64,000 bases of DNA, from contig JALVSY010000007.1 in NCBI GenBank assembly GCA_027036135.1, forward strand, positions 4,880 through 68,879, given 5' to 3'. The position numbers and the translations under genes are program-made. The notes beneath the pieces were generated by a model. That model did not search any database. It had not been told where the DNA came from and was given only the letters and a program-made list of their open reading frames with translations. This document shows positions 27,808 through 48,149 of this stretch, in pieces (position 1 is the stretch's first letter; every line of letters begins with the position of its first letter). The DNA comes from Pyrodictiaceae archaeon. Its GTDB lineage: Archaea; Thermoproteota; Thermoprotei_A; Sulfolobales; Pyrodictiaceae.

Positions 27808-28115
27808 GGTGTGCAGGGGAGGCATTCAGCGGGTTTATAGCCGCGTTAAGAGAGGGTTAAGTGTACCGGGGTCTGGATAAGCCCTAACTACTTATATAGA
27901 GGACTCCTGGCGGTACTTTTAGCAGTGAGTAAGTCCCTGACTCAGTAGCGTTGCCCTATTTGGGGACCTCGGTGTATTTTTATAAGCCTTTTAGTCTCTC
28001 TTCCAAGCTATGGACTAGGAACTGAGTGGCTACATGAGCTAAGTACTCTAGTGGATGAGGGGCTACCGCGTGAAAAAGGCCGCTCGGTAATGAGAGGCTC
28101 GAGAACATAGCTAGT

Positions 28116-28496
28116 ATGGTTTGCAAGGAGTTTGGCTACCTCTGCTTCAGCGAGGAAAAGATGGGAGACGCGTTGCCCCTCGTAGCCTCGGAGCTCGCTA
28201 TACTCGAGACCTATGACTTCCTAAGCAGAGCCCAGGGTGATAGAAAGGACAAGGGTTATGAGCTTGTCCTCGCCTGCCTCGAGGACGATAAATGCCTAGA
28301 GACTCTCCTCGACACAGTGAATAGCGCTGTAGATATATACCTAAACGGTGAGGACTACTTCTTTAGCCTCGATAAAGAAGAATTAGAGAGGGCAATAAGG
28401 GTAGCTGAGACCGTGGCCTCTATAATAGAGAAGGAGACCAGTCAAGCAAGGAGGGACAAGGAGAGCCACAGTGCTAGCAAGGAGACCCCCAGCTAG
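28116..28496 (+). CDS. Acidic hypothetical protein, paralog of 45507-45896
   Basis: Shared VCxExGxLC, ELAxxETYxF and CLExDxCL motifs. Confidence 0.75.
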   Translation: MVCKEFGYLCFSEEKMGDALPLVASELAILETYDFLSRAQGDRKDKGYELVLACLEDDKCLETLLDTVNSAVDIYLNGEDYFFSLDKEELERAIRVAETVASIIEKETSQARRDKESHSASKETPS

Positions 28497-41688: not shown

Positions 41689-42183
41689 GTGTTGGAGGTT
41701 GCAGCCGAGAGAGTGGCTGAGAAGAGCGAGCTAGAGGAGGTACTTGGCCCGGTAGAGCCTCCGAAGCCCCTGGAATGGGTCCCTGTAATAGCTAGCCTGG
41801 GTATTGAGAGGAAGCGTGTCAGGCTACGTAGTGGCGAGACCCGGGTCTATGAGAGCTACCGGGTGAGGCTACCCAAGGAGGTTGTTGAGAAGCTAGGTCT
41901 CCGAGGAGAATCAACAGTGCTCCTTCAAGTAGCCCGGCCCCGCTGGTACCACCTCCTAGACTACAGGGAAGAGCCCCTCCGCACCAGGTTCAAGCAAATA
42001 AAGAAGCCATGGATAAAGGCAGAGATATGCCTCCTAGGCCTCGCCCCCCAGGATCTATGCAATGACTATAAGACAATCACAGTCATAGCCTCCGAGCAGG
42101 AGCTACGGGAACTAGGACTGGAGCCAGGCAAGCCAATAACGCTCAGAGAACTACTAGAGAGGGCTAGAAGCATGAGAGGCTGA
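41689..42183 (+). CDS. AbrB/MazE-like swapped-hairpin protein with C-terminal extension (copy 1)
   Basis: SGETRVYESYRVRLPKEVVEKLGL; paralog of 42551-43042. Confidence 0.75.
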   Translation: MLEVAAERVAEKSELEEVLGPVEPPKPLEWVPVIASLGIERKRVRLRSGETRVYESYRVRLPKEVVEKLGLRGESTVLLQVARPRWYHLLDYREEPLRTRFKQIKKPWIKAEICLLGLAPQDLCNDYKTITVIASEQELRELGLEPGKPITLRELLERARSMRG

Positions 42184-42476: not shown

Positions 42477-42519
42477 TTCAGACTGAACCACAATGACATT
42501 TTAAACGTTCAGACTGAAC
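42477..42519. promoter_or_regulatory. Twin palindromic operator TTCAGACTGAA in divergent promoter
   Basis: Copies at 42477 and 42508, interleaved with TTTTAAA and TTTATATA boxes. Confidence 0.65.
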
Positions 42520-42550
42520 ATTTATATACCTGTGGTCACCCAAATAATCA

Positions 42551-43042
42551 TTGGTGACAATTGTGGAGACGCTGAGCGTTGAGGAGAGGGAGAGGCTCAT
42601 AGAGGAGCTACGCCGAGAGGCCAGGCCGGAGCCACTGAGGTGGAGGCTCTTCCTAGCGGAGGCTATGAGGACCCGTATGAGGAAGAGGCTGAAGAGCGGC
42701 GAGACCCGGGTCTACGAGGGCTACCGAGTAACCATACCCCTGGAGCTCGCCAAGGAGCTAGGCCTAGACCAGGACCCCGAGCTAGTAGTAGCAATAGCTA
42801 AGCCCAGATGGTACCACGGCATAATCTACGAGGATGCTACCCTCAAGCTCTTCCACAAACTCCCCCCATACGCTAAGGCGGAGATATGCCAACTGGGCCT
42901 CGCTCCCCAAGACATGTGCAGAGAATACAGAACCATAACCGTGGTAGCTAGTGAGGAAGAGCTAAGGAGGCTAGGACTGGAGCCAGGCAAGCCCGTGACA
43001 CTCAGGGAGCTCCTCGAGAAAGCCAAGAACCTCGCAACCTGA
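42551..43042 (+). CDS. AbrB/MazE-like protein (copy 2)
   Basis: SGETRVYEGYRVTIPLELAKELGL, PRWYH and KAEICxLGLAPQDxC shared with copy 1. Confidence 0.78.
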   Translation: MVTIVETLSVEERERLIEELRREARPEPLRWRLFLAEAMRTRMRKRLKSGETRVYEGYRVTIPLELAKELGLDQDPELVVAIAKPRWYHGIIYEDATLKLFHKLPPYAKAEICQLGLAPQDMCREYRTITVVASEEELRRLGLEPGKPVTLRELLEKAKNLAT

Positions 43043-43375
43043 TCCCTCTCCGCAGCAAAGATATGCATTAGCCGAAGTAGTCGAGGAAGCTGCAACGCCT
43101 ACCCATGGCCCCTAGCCAGAGCCTCCGAAGAGCCCATAGCCCTTGGGCGCGTATTTCTCCATGTACCCTACATACCAGCTTATCCGGTTACCGCTGTTCC
43201 CGATACCACCCTTAGTGGCTAGGAGCATGCATGTAGAGCATACCCTCATTGAATCTCCACTGGTATAGAGGTGGGCCTCTTGTATCCCAGGGGTACACAA
43301 GGTAACACTTTCTCCTAGAAACAATGGATGCGATAACACCTAGGCACAGATAACGAGGTACCCTAGAGCCCCATG

Positions 43376-43390
43376 AATACAAAGAAATGC
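43376..43390 (-). terminator. U-rich tract at the 3' end of the candidate RNA
   Basis: Minus strand reads GCATTTCTTTGTATT immediately after the hairpin arm. Confidence 0.4.
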
Positions 43391-45305
43391 GGGAGGAGCC
43401 CACCCCTAACCACACAGAGAGACCCAAATCAAGCCCTGGAAGCCCCTCCCCAGGGAACCCCTTCTCTCGGGGAAGGCGGCCGGCCAACCCCGAGGGGCGG
43501 GCCCCCCGGGCCCGGAAAGAGAGCCACGCATCTGGGAACCCTTGTTCTCCCCCAAGCACCCAGAGAGACACGCCCCGGGAAACCAGGCGGCCACAGAGCC
43601 CCCGCCAGGCCAAGGAGCCCGGTTCCCAGCGCCGAAGAAGACACCAGGAGAGCCCCGAGCCCAGGGACACTGCCCAGGCCCCACGGGAAGAGACCCCTAA
43701 AGTAGGAGCCCGCCACAGCGGAGGCCAATGCCAGTCCCTAAGGCCCACCCTCTCCCACGGCACGGAGGGGCAGGCCCAGCAAGCCCTAGGAATCCCCGAG
43801 TCCCCCGGAGCACCCCAAGGAACCAGGGGCTACGGCGAACCAGCGGCCCCTGGGCCTCCCCGCGGCTAGAGCCCCAAGGCACCCTAGAAGGCACCAGGGA
43901 AGCGATGACCATCCCCAGCCGCCTCAGGGATGCGTGCCAACACCACCTCGGGCCCTGGGACATCTAGGCCAGCTGGCACAGCCCCAGCCCACGGGGTGGT
44001 AGCGGAGCAACCTCTCGTCGAAGATGCGCGTCCCATGGCCCCGGCCAAGGACCTCTACCCCAAGGCTTTCGCGGAGCCCTGGCAGCCTCCGCGATACGGC
44101 CTGGGCAGAGCCCCGTAGAGTCTCTCGGTGCCGCCAGAGACCCCCAGGGCCGAGACCTAGCGGCCCTGGAAACCTTGCTCCGTCGAGGAGAACCCCTCCC
44201 AAGCACTGCTGCCAAGAGGCGAACAGCTGTTATAAGCCCCTCATGCGGTTGCCGAAAAAGTCCCCGGCCCGAAGCGGCGCTCCCAAGGACCCGGCCCAGG
44301 AGGTGAATCCTCCCCGGGCACCCTCTAGGGATCCAAGGGGCTCTCCTATACACCGAGGCTCATGCGGCCTCGGCGGAGGCCCTCCGGGGTCCCTAGAGGG
44401 CTTGGTCCCTGAGGCGCCTTGGGCCAGGGGCTTTCGGCAACCGCGTACTAGTGGATTAGCTTCGGGGCCTAGCGCGGGAGGGTTCTCCTCAACGGAGCCG
44501 TGGCACATTGCTATCATATTATTGCCGGGAATCCCTGGTAGCACCGAGAGACTCCACAAGGCCCATGCCCAGGCCTCTAAGGCAGCGGGGGCTGCCGGGC
44601 CCTACTCGCCTTGGGGCAAGAGCCCTTGATCGGAGCCAGGGGCGCTTGTTCCTCGGCGAAGAGGTTGCTCCTCCCCCGGAGCCGGGGCTATGTCAGCCAG
44701 CCTGGTCTCGGGGCTTCGAGGGTGAGCTGACACGCGCCCCCTGAGACGGCGGGGATGGTCCCTGGGTGCCTCCTTGGGGTGCCCTGGAGCACCTAGCCGC
44801 AGAGGGAGACATAGAGGGCCTAGCTAGCCCGCCGTTAAGCCCCTGGTCCCTGGGGTGCTTTCCCGGGGGTCCTCGGAGGAATCCCTGGCTCGCTGGGCCC
44901 CCTTGGTTCCTCCGCGCCGTGGGATGCTGATTGGTGGGCTTGGGCCCGGCTTGGTCTCCATGCCGTGGCGGGTCCCGGTGCCCTCCCCGCGGAGGCCTCT
45001 CTTGGTTCCTGGGTCTCGGGGCTCTCCTGGTGCTCTCGGCGCTGGCTAGGCACTGTGCTCCCTGGCCTAGCAAGGGCCTGTAACCAACCTGGTTTTCCTC
45101 GGAGCGCGTCTCTCTGGGTGCATCACCCCCGTGCGTGGCTCTCTTTGAGGATCCTCAGGGCCCACCCTCCCCGCGGGACTCTTCCTTCCCCGAGAGGGGG
45201 TCCCGGGGCGGGCGGGGTCCAGGGCTCCCTGCTCCCAGGAGGCAGGCTGGCTCCTCCTGGGAGAGGGGCTGTGTGGCTAGGGGTGGGCTCCCCTTTAGGC
45301 CTCCT
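43391..45305 (-). ncRNA. Candidate ~1.9 kb rod-like structured non-coding RNA (giant imperfect inverted repeat)
   Basis: 43395-44359 aligns colinearly with the reverse complement of 44367-45291. GC-rich, no credible ORF, and mismatches mostly G.U on the minus strand. Confidence 0.65.
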
Positions 45306-45319
45306 TTCTACTGTTTTGA

Positions 45320-45340
45320 TAGTGCTTTAAGAGTTAGGGG
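45320..45340 (-). promoter_or_regulatory. TATA-like box for the candidate RNA
   Basis: Minus-strand CTTAAAG (45325-45331), about 25 nt upstream of the hairpin's 5' arm. Confidence 0.45.
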
Positions 45341-45506
45341 GTATGAGGAGTGCTGGGTTCTCTCGCGGTTTCTTGGTGCGCGACGTGCCCGGTGGTGTAG
45401 GGGTGGTGCGGGGAGAAGGAGTGCTATGTACGGAGGGGCTTCGGGGCGCGGTGTTGCTTCCTGGTTCGAGGGGAGCATTGTTTCCCTGTCTTGGCTCCCC
45501 GTGGGG

Positions 45507-45896
45507 CTAGGTGAGGGCTTTTCCTGTCTCCTGCCTCATGTGCGGGGGTGCTCCGTCGTGGCCGTCTAGGTGTCTGCGTAGATAATCTGCTACCTCTTTT
45601 ACCTCGTCTAGGCTCACTGTGAAGAAGTACTTGTTCTCGATGTAGAGCGTGGCGGCCTCGCGAGTAGTGTCTACTAGTTGGTCTAGGCACTCGTCGCTCT
45701 CTAGGCACTCCTTTATAGCTTCCAGGCCTAGCTCGGAGGCCACGAAGCTATAGGTCTCCATCACTGCTAGCTCCATGCCCACGAGTGCTAGGAGTTCCTC
45801 CCCCAGCTCCTCTTCCTCGACGCAGAGGTCCCCAGCCTCCCTGCACACTAGGCTCGCTACTAGCCTCGGCGAGTACCTACCCAGTGGCTCCACCAT
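45507..45896 (-). CDS. Acidic hypothetical protein, paralog of 28116-28496
   Basis: Shared Cys/Glu motifs; co-oriented upstream of the candidate RNA. Confidence 0.75.
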   Translation of the reverse strand: MVEPLGRYSPRLVASLVCREAGDLCVEEEELGEELLALVGMELAVMETYSFVASELGLEAIKECLESDECLDQLVDTTREAATLYIENKYFFTVSLDEVKEVADYLRRHLDGHDGAPPHMRQETGKALT

Positions 45897-46220
45897 ACCC
45901 GGTTACACCCTCTGGAGTAGCCGCTCCCCAGGTAATACTTCTCGTAGTGCTATGTGATACGGTTTCTGGTTCGCTTCCCTATACACTACTCTACTTTATT
46001 GTTTGCCACGCCCCTACCAAGGACATCACCCAGAAGCACTCATCAACCCGAATCCAGGCACTATGCCCGGGTTTACGCCATGCAGAGATACTTCCTAACC
46101 ACGTATTTACTCCATGCACAGAGCCGTAGATGTCTCAGCGTCTCTGAAGACGTCGTCTCCTAGGACGAAAACCATTCATAAATGTGCTTGTTGGGTTCTC
46201 TAAGGGCTGGTTTTTCTCTC

Positions 46221-46664
46221 CTAGCGTATGAGTAGGTTGCTTGTGTCTAGGCCCTTTGTCTCTAGGAACTCTACTAGTTTCCTATCGCGTGTGACTAGGA
46301 TCGCGTCTTCGTGGAGGGCTGTAGCGTAGAGTATACAGTCAAAGATATCGGGGTGCCCAAGTGCCTTCAGCTTAATCGCGGTCTTGATGTGCTCTATACG
46401 GGGCTGTATAAGCCCCACATCAACTTCTAGGAGTAATGCGATCAAGGCCTCGGACGCGGGCTCGGGTACCTCGCGGAGCCCTTGCTTCATCATCTCCTTT
46501 GCTATCTTTGCTGCGAGTTCGGGTAGGAGCAGGATAGGGTAATAGATATCTGCGCCTAGCTCTTCTCTTAGCCTGGCTACGTCCCTGGCTTCTAGTCCTT
46601 GTACCTTTATACCGAAGAATGGTAAAAGATAAGTGGTATCGATAACGGCCTTTCTTCTCTGCAA
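46221..46664 (-). CDS. vapC: VapC PIN toxin
   Basis: VIDTTYL, HPDIFDCILYATA and VTRD. Confidence 0.9.
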   Translation of the reverse strand: MQRRKAVIDTTYLLPFFGIKVQGLEARDVARLREELGADIYYPILLLPELAAKIAKEMMKQGLREVPEPASEALIALLLEVDVGLIQPRIEHIKTAIKLKALGHPDIFDCILYATALHEDAILVTRDRKLVEFLETKGLDTSNLLIR

Positions 46665-46667
46665 GGC

Positions 46668-46904
46668 CTACTGGTCCTCCTCGCTTATCCTGGTAAGTTC
46701 CTCGCTCTCCTCCTCGAACTCCTCCACGGTTGTCTCAGCCCAGTAGCTCCTCTCCTTGAATAGGCGGGGGAGGGGGCGAAGCACTAGCTCGTTTCCACGG
46801 ATGCTAAGTAATAGTCTGTCGCCTTCGCGTAGCCCTAATTTCTCAACAATCTCCTTTGGGAGATAAAGCGCATATTTCCGGCCAACCCGGATAACCAGGC
46901 TCAA
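46668..46904 (-). CDS. AbrB/MazE antitoxin
   Basis: RVGRKYALYLPKEIVEKLGLREGD. Confidence 0.9.
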   Translation of the reverse strand: MSLVIRVGRKYALYLPKEIVEKLGLREGDRLLLSIRGNELVLRPLPRLFKERSYWAETTVEEFEEESEELTRISEEDQ

Positions 46905-47117: not shown

Positions 47118-48149
47118 TTGACTAAGCCTAGGCCCGGTGTCCTCGAGTCCCTGTTCACCCTGCTCAGTTCGCGGGACCCGAGCGTGGTTGTTGGCCCGGG
47201 TATCGGGGAGGATGCCGCGGTCATAGAGCTTGACGAGGCCCGTGTCCTTGTTACCCACGTTGACCCGGTTACCGGGGCCTCCAGGCTCCTCGGATGGCTG
47301 GGAGTCCATGTAGCCGCTAACGATGTCGCTGCTACTGGTGCTCGTCCCCGCTGGCTCCTCGTAACCCTGCTGGTGCCTAGCGGCTCGGGCCCCGAGGCAA
47401 TAGAGGCTGTTATGCGTGACGCGGCCCGCGCAGCCAGGGAGCTCGGGGCAAGCATTGTCGGTGGCCACACGGAGTACGCTCCTGGGGTGGAGAAGCCAGT
47501 GATAGTCGTGACAGCCATTGGTGTAGCGGGGAGGGACTCCTTTGTAGCGACGCGTGGCGCGAGGCCCGGTGACGCAGTGGTACTGACCAAGTACGCAGCG
47601 ATGGAGGCAGCCGCTGTGCTCGCGACTGATTACGCAGAGGAGCTCCGGAGAAGGGGAGTCGGCGAGGAGGTGCTACGGGAAGCTGCTAGGCTACAGGAGA
47701 TGGTGAGCGTGGTGCCGGAGGCACTACTACTCTCTGAGAGCAAGCTAGCAAGCTCTATGCATGACCCGACCGAGGGAGGAGTACTCGGGGGCGCAGCAGA
47801 GATAGCCTATGCCTCGGGGACCACGATAAGGCTCTATGAGGAAAAGATACCCCTGCACCCAGCCGCCAAGGAAGTCCTAGAGGCGATGAGTCTGGACCCG
47901 CTGCGCTCCCTTAGCTCCGGGGCACTCCTAGCAACAATTCCGCGGGCAAAGCTAGGAGAAGCCCTCATGAGGCTAGAGGATATCGGGGTAAGAGCCACAG
48001 TCATAGGCGAGGTGATAGAGTACAACGGTTACCTAGTAGAGCTGCACCGTGTCAACGGCGTAGTTGAGACCCTGGAGGAGCCCTATGTAGAGGACGAGGT
48101 CATGAAGCTCTGGGAGAAGAGAGGTGGGCAAGAAGATAAGGCTAAGTAG
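47118..48149 (+). CDS. AIR synthase-related (HypE/ThiL-like) protein
   Basis: GPGIGEDAA, ANDVA, GGHTE and MHDPTEGG. Confidence 0.9.
   Translation: MTKPRPGVLESLFTLLSSRDPSVVVGPGIGEDAAVIELDEARVLVTHVDPVTGASRLLGWLGVHVAANDVAATGARPRWLLVTLLVPSGSGPEAIEAVMRDAARAARELGASIVGGHTEYAPGVEKPVIVVTAIGVAGRDSFVATRGARPGDAVVLTKYAAMEAAAVLATDYAEELRRRGVGEEVLREAARLQEMVSVVPEALLLSESKLASSMHDPTEGGVLGGAAEIAYASGTTIRLYEEKIPLHPAAKEVLEAMSLDPLRSLSSGALLATIPRAKLGEALMRLEDIGVRATVIGEVIEYNGYLVELHRVNGVVETLEEPYVEDEVMKLWEKRGGQEDKAK

Follow-up and report, generated by a model that had tools for sequence, protein, structure and literature searches.

A 1.9-kb fold-back element in a Pyrodictiaceae genome as candidate gene for a very long rod-like RNA

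Structure of the locus

The DNA analyzed here (the window) is a stretch of 64,000 nucleotides (nt) from contig JALVSY010000007.1 of a Pyrodictiaceae archaeon (assembly GCA_027036135.1). The host genome, called G000 in the following, comprises 2.2 Mb in 40 contigs, has a GC content of ~50% and is 99.6% complete. At positions 43391-45305 of the window (G000:C7:48270-50184), an element of 1915 nt is located whose two halves are complementary to each other. An earlier note, made from the sequence alone, had taken it for a candidate rod-shaped non-coding RNA (ncRNA). Its features are listed below in the order in which they would be transcribed from the minus strand, the predicted sense strand; identities refer to a homologous element on a metagenome contig.

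45325-45331, minus: promoter-like AT box CTTAAAG, 33 nt upstream of the terminal helix (putative promoter)
45269-45291, minus: terminal helix, 5' strand, GGAGCCCACCCC..., 23 nt, 96% complementary to 43395-43417
45112-45177, minus: conserved basal core, 5' half, with GAGGATCCTC at 45147-45156; 90% identity to the metagenome homolog
44374-45268, minus: 5' arm of the rod, C/A-rich and U-poor (A 0.20, C 0.35, G 0.33, U 0.12), pairing colinearly with the 3' arm
44506-44522, minus: A-rich loop AUAAUAUGAUAGCAAUG, unpaired in the minimum-free-energy (MFE) fold
44449-44460, minus: second sub-apical loop with the motif UAAUCCACUA, of which AUCCAC is unpaired in the fold
44353-44373, minus: apex hairpin with a 7-bp stem and a 7-nt loop (CCGAGGC 44353-44359, GCCTCGG 44367-44373), at which the fold of the whole element turns
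43418-44352, minus: 3' arm of the rod, G/U-rich and A-poor (A 0.09, C 0.30, G 0.39, U 0.22)
43470-43525, minus: conserved basal core, 3' half, with CCGGGCCCGG at 43506-43515 and GGCCGGCC at 43478-43485; 95% identity to the metagenome homolog
43395-43417, minus: terminal helix, 3' strand, ...GGGGUGGGCUCC, pairing with 45269-45291
43375-43388, minus: T-rich tract downstream of the rod, a weak terminator candidate
45507-45896, minus: flanking open reading frame (ORF) of 129 amino acids (aa), without Pfam match, a context marker outside the element

From the outermost arm pair (43395-43417/45269-45291), a colinear series of inverted pairs proceeds inward, and the repeat listing for positions 42500-46200 contains 24 such pairs. 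The pair 43556-43582/45095-45121 is 85% complementary, the pair 44110-44145/44527-44562 holds the identical sequence GAGTCTCTCGGTGC. The arm pairs quoted by the earlier note, GAGTCTCTCGGTGC included, were found at their positions, and its description of the apex (CCGAGGC-7 nt-GCCTCGG) proved to be exact. When the left half was globally aligned with the reverse-complemented right half, colinearity extended from end to end, and 570 of the 876 aligned columns were identical (65%). Hence, the statement that the arms are colinear along their whole length is correct, but their pairing is far from perfect, since it consists of 65% Watson-Crick pairs and, on the better strand, about 12% G·U pairs, interrupted by 153 gap columns.

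In a BLAST search of G000 with the element, the sole non-self match was its own inverted copy (68.5% over 753 nt, E 1.6e-42); the element is single-copy. It has a GC content of 67-70% in the ~50% GC genome, and windowed values of 0.61-0.71 (43300-45400) compared to about 0.47-0.59 in the flanks agree with the GC enrichment described before. The AT skew reverses between the arms (+0.57 left, -0.45 right). Apart from two islands of ~5.4 kb, presumed to be ribosomal RNA (rRNA) operons, and one region of 2.2 kb, the element is the largest GC-rich island of the genome. A genome-wide scan for nearby inverted repeats listed 13 cases, none of which is a comparable contiguous fold-back of kilobase size.

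The fold-back was reproduced by independent metagenome contigs. A contig of 3060 nt from another study (run X4) covers positions 43102-45600 with 22 substitutions and three indels, while a contig of 1867 nt (run X3) covers 43301-45167 through the apex without any difference. As these contigs span the element, it is not a misassembly, a possibility which the earlier note had already judged to be less likely. Besides the assembly, contigs of four DNA runs contain the element as DNA, and the runs holding its sequence are labelled as hydrothermal vent metagenomes.

Coding potential and known families

Open frames of up to 201 aa are present in all six frames, overlap each other and are of low complexity, as had been noticed before. 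Stop codons are infrequent at the composition of the element, which explains the open frames. The mismatches between the arms are distributed over the three positions of a putative codon as 102/102/102, which means that there is no codon periodicity, and the gaps in the arm alignment mostly have lengths that are not multiples of three. None of the three internal ORFs tested matched a Pfam family. A protein-coding function was rejected on account of the missing periodicity, the lack of Pfam matches and the unconserved interior described below.

Rfam searches at gathering thresholds gave no match in the whole window. For positions 43200-45600, seven sub-threshold matches were obtained at E<=10, the best of them (mraW) with 26 bits compared to a cut-off of 50, and these were treated as chance. 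A tRNA search detected none. Signal recognition particle (SRP) RNA (RF01857) gave no match at E<=10 in 43200-45600, and the genome's own copy lies at G000:C16:239136-239447 (169 bits). Similarly, RNase P RNA (RF00373) was not matched in the window and is encoded at G000:C30:209646-209969 (154.6 bits), and the Rfam models for SSU, LSU and 5S rRNA did not match the window. The element is, as previously proposed, neither one of these RNAs nor an rRNA fragment.

A replication origin was also considered and rejected. The only Cdc6_C matches lie far away, at C30:72888 and C7:953325 (ORB boxes and whiP were not searched for), no large-scale skew switch was found at the element in G000 or in its relatives G004 and G023, and the G000 element lacks an AT-rich centre. 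A viral origin was rejected on the basis of a viral contig collection in which neither conserved block of the element had a match. Finally, in the 99.6%-complete host genome no match to the domains Ribonucleas_3_3 (RNase III), dsrm (dsRBD) and TROVE (Ro) was obtained.

Relatives and genomic context

With the element as DNA query, five of 41 related genomes were matched, and the matches in the relatives were all short. They are located in G004, a complete genome of the same genus, in G023 and G018, which belong to a second genus, and in G002, there at the end of a contig. At the sites in G004, G023 and G018, a GC-rich island was identified in each case which is built as a colinear inverted repeat. 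A fifth element emerged from metagenome contigs (contig L110) that were scanned with a degenerate motif of 29 nt derived from the 3' half of the core; this pattern matches exactly in G000, G004, G023, G018 and the one metagenome contig. The lengths of the elements are 1915 nt in G000, 1557 nt on the metagenome contig, 1026 nt in G004, 668 nt in G023 and 633 nt in G018, the last one being cut by a contig end.

The 3' block was found in four of the 29 genomes of the family, the same number as with the G023 element as DNA query. When up to three mismatches were allowed, the 5' block was present in nine of 351 genomes of the class. Five of these matches (G072, G108, G266, G042 and G349) contain two to three mismatches, occur without the partner motif or a GC-rich island and were deemed to be chance.

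Homologs of the 129-aa ORF adjoin the element in G002 (85% identity by blastp, 88% in a second search), in G004 (45%) and on the metagenome contig (71% at the nucleotide level). On the latter, the ORF lies upstream of the element in the same orientation as in the window. In G002, the contig continues from the ORF into the first part of the element, where it ends. In G004, the element is situated beside the ORF homolog, and the next eight genes are syntenic with the window, while the left flanks of G000 and G004 are non-syntenic. In the second genus (g11), the context of the element differs from that of the G000 type. The 129-aa family is small and multi-copy, with two matches in G000 and three in G004, and is present in four of the 29 family genomes. 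For the protein itself, no Pfam family and no usable match in a protein atlas search were obtained.

Common anatomy and strand polarity

All five elements share the same asymmetric anatomy. On one arm, GAGGATCCTC is embedded in a conserved block about 100-150 nt from the end, and at the matching place of the opposite arm CCGGGCCCGG is found, followed by GGCCGGCC. The block GCGGG(G)AGGG..GGGCC..GAGGATCCTCA is kept in each of them. At the end of the arm carrying GAGGATCCTC, a CTTAAA box precedes the terminal helix by 29-34 nt in 5/5 elements. The more extended box block CCCCTAAC.CTTAAA is common to G000, the metagenome contig and G023/G018, of which G004 keeps only CCTTAAA. The rod begins with GGAG.CC(C)ACCC in G000, the metagenome contig and G023, with GGGCCACCC in G004 and without such a start in G018. 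Its end, ...GGGTGGG.CTCC in the first three elements, reads ...GGGTGG in G004, and the G018 contig stops inside the terminal repeat.

In the predicted folds of all five elements, the long unpaired loops are A-rich on the sense strand, which is the strand that starts at the CTTAAA box (minus in the window). Motifs of the AAUC(C/A)A type occur in the A-rich loops of G000, the metagenome contig, G004 and G023; the loops of G018 are without this motif. The loop AUAAUAUGAUAGCAAUG of G000 has a similar counterpart in G004, AAUAAUCAAUAGCAAU. In G023 and G018, two AT-rich spacers surrounding an apical hairpin of 14 bp are direct and not inverted repeats. Inspection of the basal region by eye revealed no evident K-turn or bulge-helix-bulge motif.

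MFE folds of both strands and the mismatches in the arm alignments are compiled below (MFE sense/antisense in kcal/mol; G·U pairs sense/antisense; arm mismatches of G·U versus A·C type).

G000: MFE -1441/-1297; G·U pairs 81/37; arm mismatches 102 vs 70
Metagenome contig: MFE -1247/-1100; G·U pairs 61/27; arm mismatches 91 vs 47
G004: MFE -794/-662; G·U pairs 51/8; arm mismatches 58 vs 20
G023: MFE -527/-487; G·U pairs 23/12; arm mismatches 23 vs 21
G018: MFE -511/-444; G·U pairs 27/11; arm mismatches 29 vs 16

The sense strand gave the more stable fold in 5/5 elements, and summed over the five arm alignments, 303 mismatches of the G·U type were counted compared to 174 of the A·C type. The five elements are not all independent, G023 and G018 being close relatives. 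In the minus-strand fold of G000 at 37 C, about 82% of the nucleotides are paired (540 G-C, 162 A-U and 81 G·U pairs), and 683-721 of the 735-783 predicted pairs connect the two arms, resulting in a rod-like shape along the full length. Folding of both strands at high temperature, which the earlier note had suggested, yielded predicted energies of -398 kcal/mol for the minus and -322 kcal/mol for the plus strand at 90 C. A function exerted purely as double-stranded DNA, or by two outward transcripts, would imply strand symmetry, whereas a single-stranded hairpin with a polarity would account for the asymmetry seen. As far as can be judged from the sequences, this points to the minus strand as the putative transcribed one, whereas no strand had been assigned in the earlier note.

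Co-evolution of the arms and the basal core

BLAST detects similarity between the G000 and the metagenome element in four stretches only. Identity is 71% in the flanking gene, 87% in the box with the leader, 90% in the 5' half of the core and 95% in its 3' half. No alignment is possible for the other 1.3-1.7 kb of the rod, and the elements differ in length by 358 nt. Within each of the two elements, the arms are nevertheless colinear and 65% Watson-Crick paired. Since the arms of one element are more alike than the orthologs, they did not drift independently.

Compensatory changes in homologs, which the earlier note had named as a check on its proposal, were detected. For G023 and G018, whose mean column identity is 85%, the RNAalifold consensus contains 213 pairs with 18 two-sided and 30 one-sided changes, while controls in which the 3' partner was slid by one to three columns gave only zero to three two-sided changes. 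In the basal core, 27 of the 33 predicted pairs hold in all five sequences; 12 of these 27 vary, seven of them by two-sided change, and one U·G pair is invariant. Between GAGGAUCCUC and CCGGGCCCGG, a 2x2, a 1x1 and a second 2x2 mismatch are invariant in the five elements. RNA helices that bind proteins typically combine such unchanging mismatches with covarying pairs around them.

A candidate rod-like RNA

Taken as a whole, the locus is best read, with a probability of roughly 60%, as the gene for one very long rod-like ncRNA encoded on the minus strand, in which the conserved basal and sub-apical modules would be binding sites. Underlying this reading are the upstream box, the covarying basal helix with its invariant mismatches, the A-rich loops on one strand and the excess of G·U pairs on the same strand in 5/5 elements. 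The long rod RNA favoured by the earlier note is therefore the best-supported reading by comparative evidence, while its viroid- or obelisk-like variant is not supported for a single-copy chromosomal locus. On this reading, the element would be a candidate RNA gene of a new type. A limited literature search on hyperthermophilic archaea and Pyrodictium revealed no description of such an element.

Starting from the observed anatomy, conservation, polarity and covariation, the following course of events can be proposed. Driven by the CTTAAAG box at 45325-45331, transcription would begin a few nucleotides ahead of the terminal inverted repeat and give a 5' end near 45300. The C/A-rich, U-poor 5' arm would have little structure of its own, and it is conceivable that this composition avoids local misfolding before the 3' arm has been made. 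Once the G/U-rich 3' arm is synthesized, the arms would zip into an imperfect duplex of ~900 bp, with a predicted 3' end near 43390. The irregular basal helix GAGGAUCCUC/CCGGGCCCGG, which has covarying pairs and additional palindromic bulges on its sides, may then serve as a site for protein or RNA binding, and the single-stranded, A-rich sub-apical loops of the AAUC(C/A)A type might be a second binding module. The interior would be a fast-evolving GC-rich spacer of variable length (0.6-1.9 kb) that would only have to remain paired at very high temperature. As to the role of the molecule, it may act as a thermostable ribonucleoprotein scaffold or as a decoy. Because no RNase III, dsRBD or Ro domain was detected in G000, nothing known in this organism would cut the long duplex, and binding partners, if there are any, would have to be proteins that are not yet known.

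A more far-reaching version of this proposal is put forward tentatively, at slightly less than even odds. According to it, the elements constitute a new RNA class in two genera of hyperthermophilic archaea from hydrothermal vents, formed by chromosomally encoded, nearly completely double-stranded rods of 0.6-1.9 kb which would include the longest unbranched hairpin RNA gene known from prokaryotes. Function would reside in the basal helix and the sub-apical A-rich loops, the stem being free to grow and to turn over as long as it remains paired, and the DNA may flip between perfect terminal repeats in such a way that one promoter reads either strand.

Points against this reading and alternative explanations

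A number of observations weigh against the proposed RNA gene; some of them are given together with the alternative to which they relate. None of the ten listed runs holding sequence of the element is recorded as RNA. The distribution is narrow, since each of three queries detected the element in four of the 29 genomes of the family, which belong to two of its 11 genera, and in none of the five complete genomes of other genera. Many other genomes of the family are incomplete and repeats of this kind break assemblies, so that non-detection in them does not show absence. The CTTAA sequence is present upstream of the SRP RNA gene of G000 and of five of 35 tRNA genes, compared to 3.6% of random windows; it is a plausible promoter signature but not a strong genome-wide consensus. 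Pyrimidine- or T-rich tracts follow the 3' end in 5/5 elements, and runs of five T occur in G004 only.

The covariation, too, has its weaknesses. The consensus structures were scored on the few sequences from which they had been derived. When a fold of G023 alone was transferred to G018, 25 one-sided changes kept and 21 broke a pair, and of the two-sided changes 14 kept and ten broke one, with 39 gaps. The corresponding values of the antisense control (17/35 one-sided, 14/5 two-sided) indicate that the strand preference is modest. Eighteen population single nucleotide polymorphisms (SNPs) in the element were distributed on the minus-strand fold as six that keep a pair, six that break one and six in unpaired positions (five, four and nine on the plus-strand fold). 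They look neutral and are too few for a test of covariation. The G000 rod is leaky as well, as 573 Watson-Crick positions are opposed by 70 A·C mismatches, 136 other mismatches and the gap columns mentioned above.

The most serious alternative, though regarded as unlikely, is a palindrome that matters at the level of DNA. The arms would be kept alike by recombination or gene conversion and the whole might be invertible; it would be a protein-binding or cruciform site, or functionless, and any transcript would be incidental. A fold-back DNA element, the second reading offered by the earlier note, is conceivable as well. In G004, the whole unit of box, arms and T-rich end (about 7069-8081 of L007) is inverted relative to the syntenic genes and thus to the neighbour gene, with G000, G002 and the metagenome contig sharing the opposite orientation as reference. 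In G018, the first 86 nt of the 5' arm recur as an exact reverse complement at the opening of contig C131 (positions 1-90), where a perfect terminal repeat of 37 nt joins them to the right flank. A second contig, C22 (5151-5783), enters the element from the left flank, traverses it and ends in the terminal repeat, carrying the other arm there. Both the G004 inversion and the G018 junction, the two of them counted among our points against an RNA gene, are what recombination between inverted repeats at the DNA level would produce. The junction reflects either a second orientation in the sample or an assembly chimera, and no strand-changing joint was found in four runs of the G000 type. No recombinase was present among the subset of neighbours tested by Pfam.

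A DNA palindrome would also fit the symmetric indels, which preserve the colinearity of the arms despite a threefold variation in length between species, and the turnover of the interior, which outpaces that of the neighbouring coding gene and is easily explained by segmental conversion. Length changes that are symmetric between the arms suggest that conversion of one arm by the other helps to maintain the rod, and this would be compatible with an RNA gene as well. The four conserved motifs (GAGGATCCTC, CCGGGCCCGG, GGCCGGCC and CCGCGCGG) are palindromic like the sites of dimeric DNA-binding proteins, and the neutral-looking SNPs are in line with it. On the other hand, a palindrome gives no reason for a GC content of 67-70% in a hyperthermophile with 50% GC, nor for the strand-specific G·U excess in 5/5 elements. 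It does not account for the A-rich loops on one strand, the direct-repeat spacers and the one-sided upstream box either, and the persistence of the non-complementary pair GAGGATCCTC/CCGGGCCCGG only nucleotides away from covarying positions speaks against simple homogenization.

An RNA gene as proposed here leaves the mirrored skew of the arms (C/A versus G/U) unexplained. This skew would be expected, under one compositional bias, from two paralogous structured RNA genes arranged head to head and transcribed outward, each G/U-rich and folding on itself, the fold-back then being the result of common descent. In comparison with 20 shuffles, single-arm folds of the G/U-rich strands gave z values of -3.7 and -3.0, those of the C/A-rich strands -2.35 and -0.76, so that each arm on its own does to some extent better than its shuffles, most clearly on the G/U-rich strands; this also weakens the case for a single rod. 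Moreover, the centre is AT-rich and TATA-like in G004, G023 and G018. It is not AT-rich in G000 and in the metagenome element, however, and the central AT-rich spacers of G023 and G018 are direct repeats instead of mirror images. Two outward genes predict equal numbers of G·U on both strands, in contrast to the counts of 303 and 174 (58 and 20 in G004). Independent paralogs should also behave in the reverse way to what was observed, since the interiors of orthologous elements cannot be aligned while the arms within an element are 65% alike. This arrangement is considered to be improbable.

Still less probable is a remnant of mobile or viral DNA, such as a fold-back transposon or a linear replicon whose terminal inverted repeats became fused. 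The architecture of such a remnant would be that of a long inverted repeat as seen here, and the non-syntenic left flanks of G000 and G004 as well as the toxin-antitoxin-like genes around the element may be reminiscent of mobile DNA. However, the element is single-copy in G000, and in G000, G002, G004 and the metagenome contig its neighbour belongs to the same 129-aa gene family, the g11 context being different. The neighbours tested include no transposase, integrase or capsid-type gene, and neither conserved block matched the viral contigs.

It is hardly credible that the locus is an unusual or decayed coding sequence, or that it arose during assembly. The open frames in all six frames reflect rare stop codons, the arm mismatches are without codon periodicity, most gaps are not multiples of three in length, the three internal ORFs tested have no Pfam match, and the interior is unconserved even between close relatives. 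Contigs of other runs and studies reproduce the fold-back.

Neighbouring genes and further observations in the host genome

Between the element and the 129-aa ORF lies a spacer (45306-45560) with about 61% GC and a strong G+T skew of the plus strand (GC skew +0.31, AT skew -0.50). This spacer is unconserved in the metagenome relative. A paralog of the 129-aa protein is encoded at about 28077-28391 (plus strand) of the window. To the left of the element, two paralogous proteins of 164 aa (41689-42183, plus) and 163 aa (42551-43042, plus) match the AbrB/MazE type (SpoVT-AbrB), one with 30.8 bits above and one with 18.6 bits below the cut-off. On the other side, a PIN-domain protein (46221-46664, minus) and a small upstream partner that looks AbrB-like, though it was not scanned (46668-46904, minus), resemble a VapBC toxin-antitoxin pair, followed by an AIR-synthase-related gene (47118-48149, plus). 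In the ORF comparison, neither this pair nor the AIR-synthase-related gene had a match in the G004 stretch compared.

The inverted-repeat scan of G000 additionally revealed a perfect palindrome of 56 nt (G000:C7:338619-338674) and a perfect inverted repeat of 48 nt with arms 148 nt apart (C16:396018-396260). The GC-rich stretch of 2.2 kb (G000:C7:897534-899769) belongs to a cluster of stretches with 64-66% GC in the region 890-915 kb (~25 kb), which may be a GC-rich genomic island. Many short contigs of the assembly (C3, C10-C12, C25, C38 and others; 1-3 kb) have a GC content of 17-35% compared to about 50% in the large contigs, and look like foreign sequence that was binned into the assembly.

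Significance

If transcribed as predicted, the element would give rise to the first rod-shaped cellular RNA of kilobase scale from archaea. It would then demonstrate that organisms with growth temperatures near 100 C, in which no RNase III or dsRBD was detectable here, are able to keep a very long double-stranded RNA as a normal gene product. With its basal helix, variable stem and A-rich loops, the element offers a simple system for finding new archaeal RNA-binding proteins, and it could reveal how long helices evolve, by compensatory change or by arm-to-arm conversion. Fold-backs of this kind break short-read assemblies, as illustrated by the contigs of G002 and G018 that end in the element, and they are invisible to annotation based on Rfam.

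Comparison with known systems

Archaeal replication origins contain an AT-rich unwinding element between inverted Orc1/Cdc6 boxes. The elements described here have the dyad symmetry and, in 3/5 cases, an AT-rich centre in common with them. Unlike origins, they possess arms of 0.3-0.9 kb with about 70% GC, and the Orc1/Cdc6 genes are located about 900 kb away or on another contig.

Among the large bacterial ncRNAs, OLE, GOLLD, ROOL and HEARO have complex folds composed of many helices. Like these RNAs, the elements have a size of at least 0.6 kb, are restricted to a lineage and were recognized by composition and covariation before any function. They differ from them in consisting essentially of one unbranched helix, in being archaeal and in the lack of a match to the respective Rfam models.

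Eukaryotic hairpin RNA loci are precursors of endogenous small interfering RNAs and depend on Dicer or RNase III and on Argonaute. They resemble the locus in being genomic inverted repeats with a duplex of hundreds of base pairs, transcription being predicted in the present case. In contrast, neither an RNase III nor a dsRBD domain was detected in the host, and conservation is concentrated in the basal and sub-apical modules and not in a stem complementary to a target.

In Y RNAs, which are bound by Ro, and in SRP-type RNAs, the ends pair into a long stem with a conserved irregular helix for protein binding. A closing helix formed by both ends, a basal helix with invariant mismatches and a variable distal part are likewise found in the elements. 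However, these are 3-20 times longer, a TROVE/Ro gene was not detected, and the true SRP and RNase P RNAs are encoded elsewhere in the genome.

Viroids, hepatitis delta virus and obelisks form unbranched, imperfect rods in which roughly 70-80% of the nucleotides are paired, with a length of about 1 kb in obelisks. These agents are extrachromosomal circular RNA replicons without a DNA stage, whereas the element is single-copy chromosomal DNA with its own upstream box. In Rfam scans, no ribozyme or other family was matched in it, and no conserved ORF was noticed (three internal ORFs were compared with Pfam; no Oblin profile search was made). Since the locus is chromosomal and single-copy, adjoins the same neighbour gene in the same or a near genus, has its own box and lacks a viral match, a viroid- or obelisk-like replicon is not supported. 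What the element shares with these agents is the architecture, that is, an unbranched imperfect rod of a similar order of length, with a small conserved core that contains palindromic motifs and a variable remainder. If the proposed RNA gene is real, it would be a DNA-encoded counterpart of the viroid, delta and obelisk rods and would bear on the question of how such rods originated.

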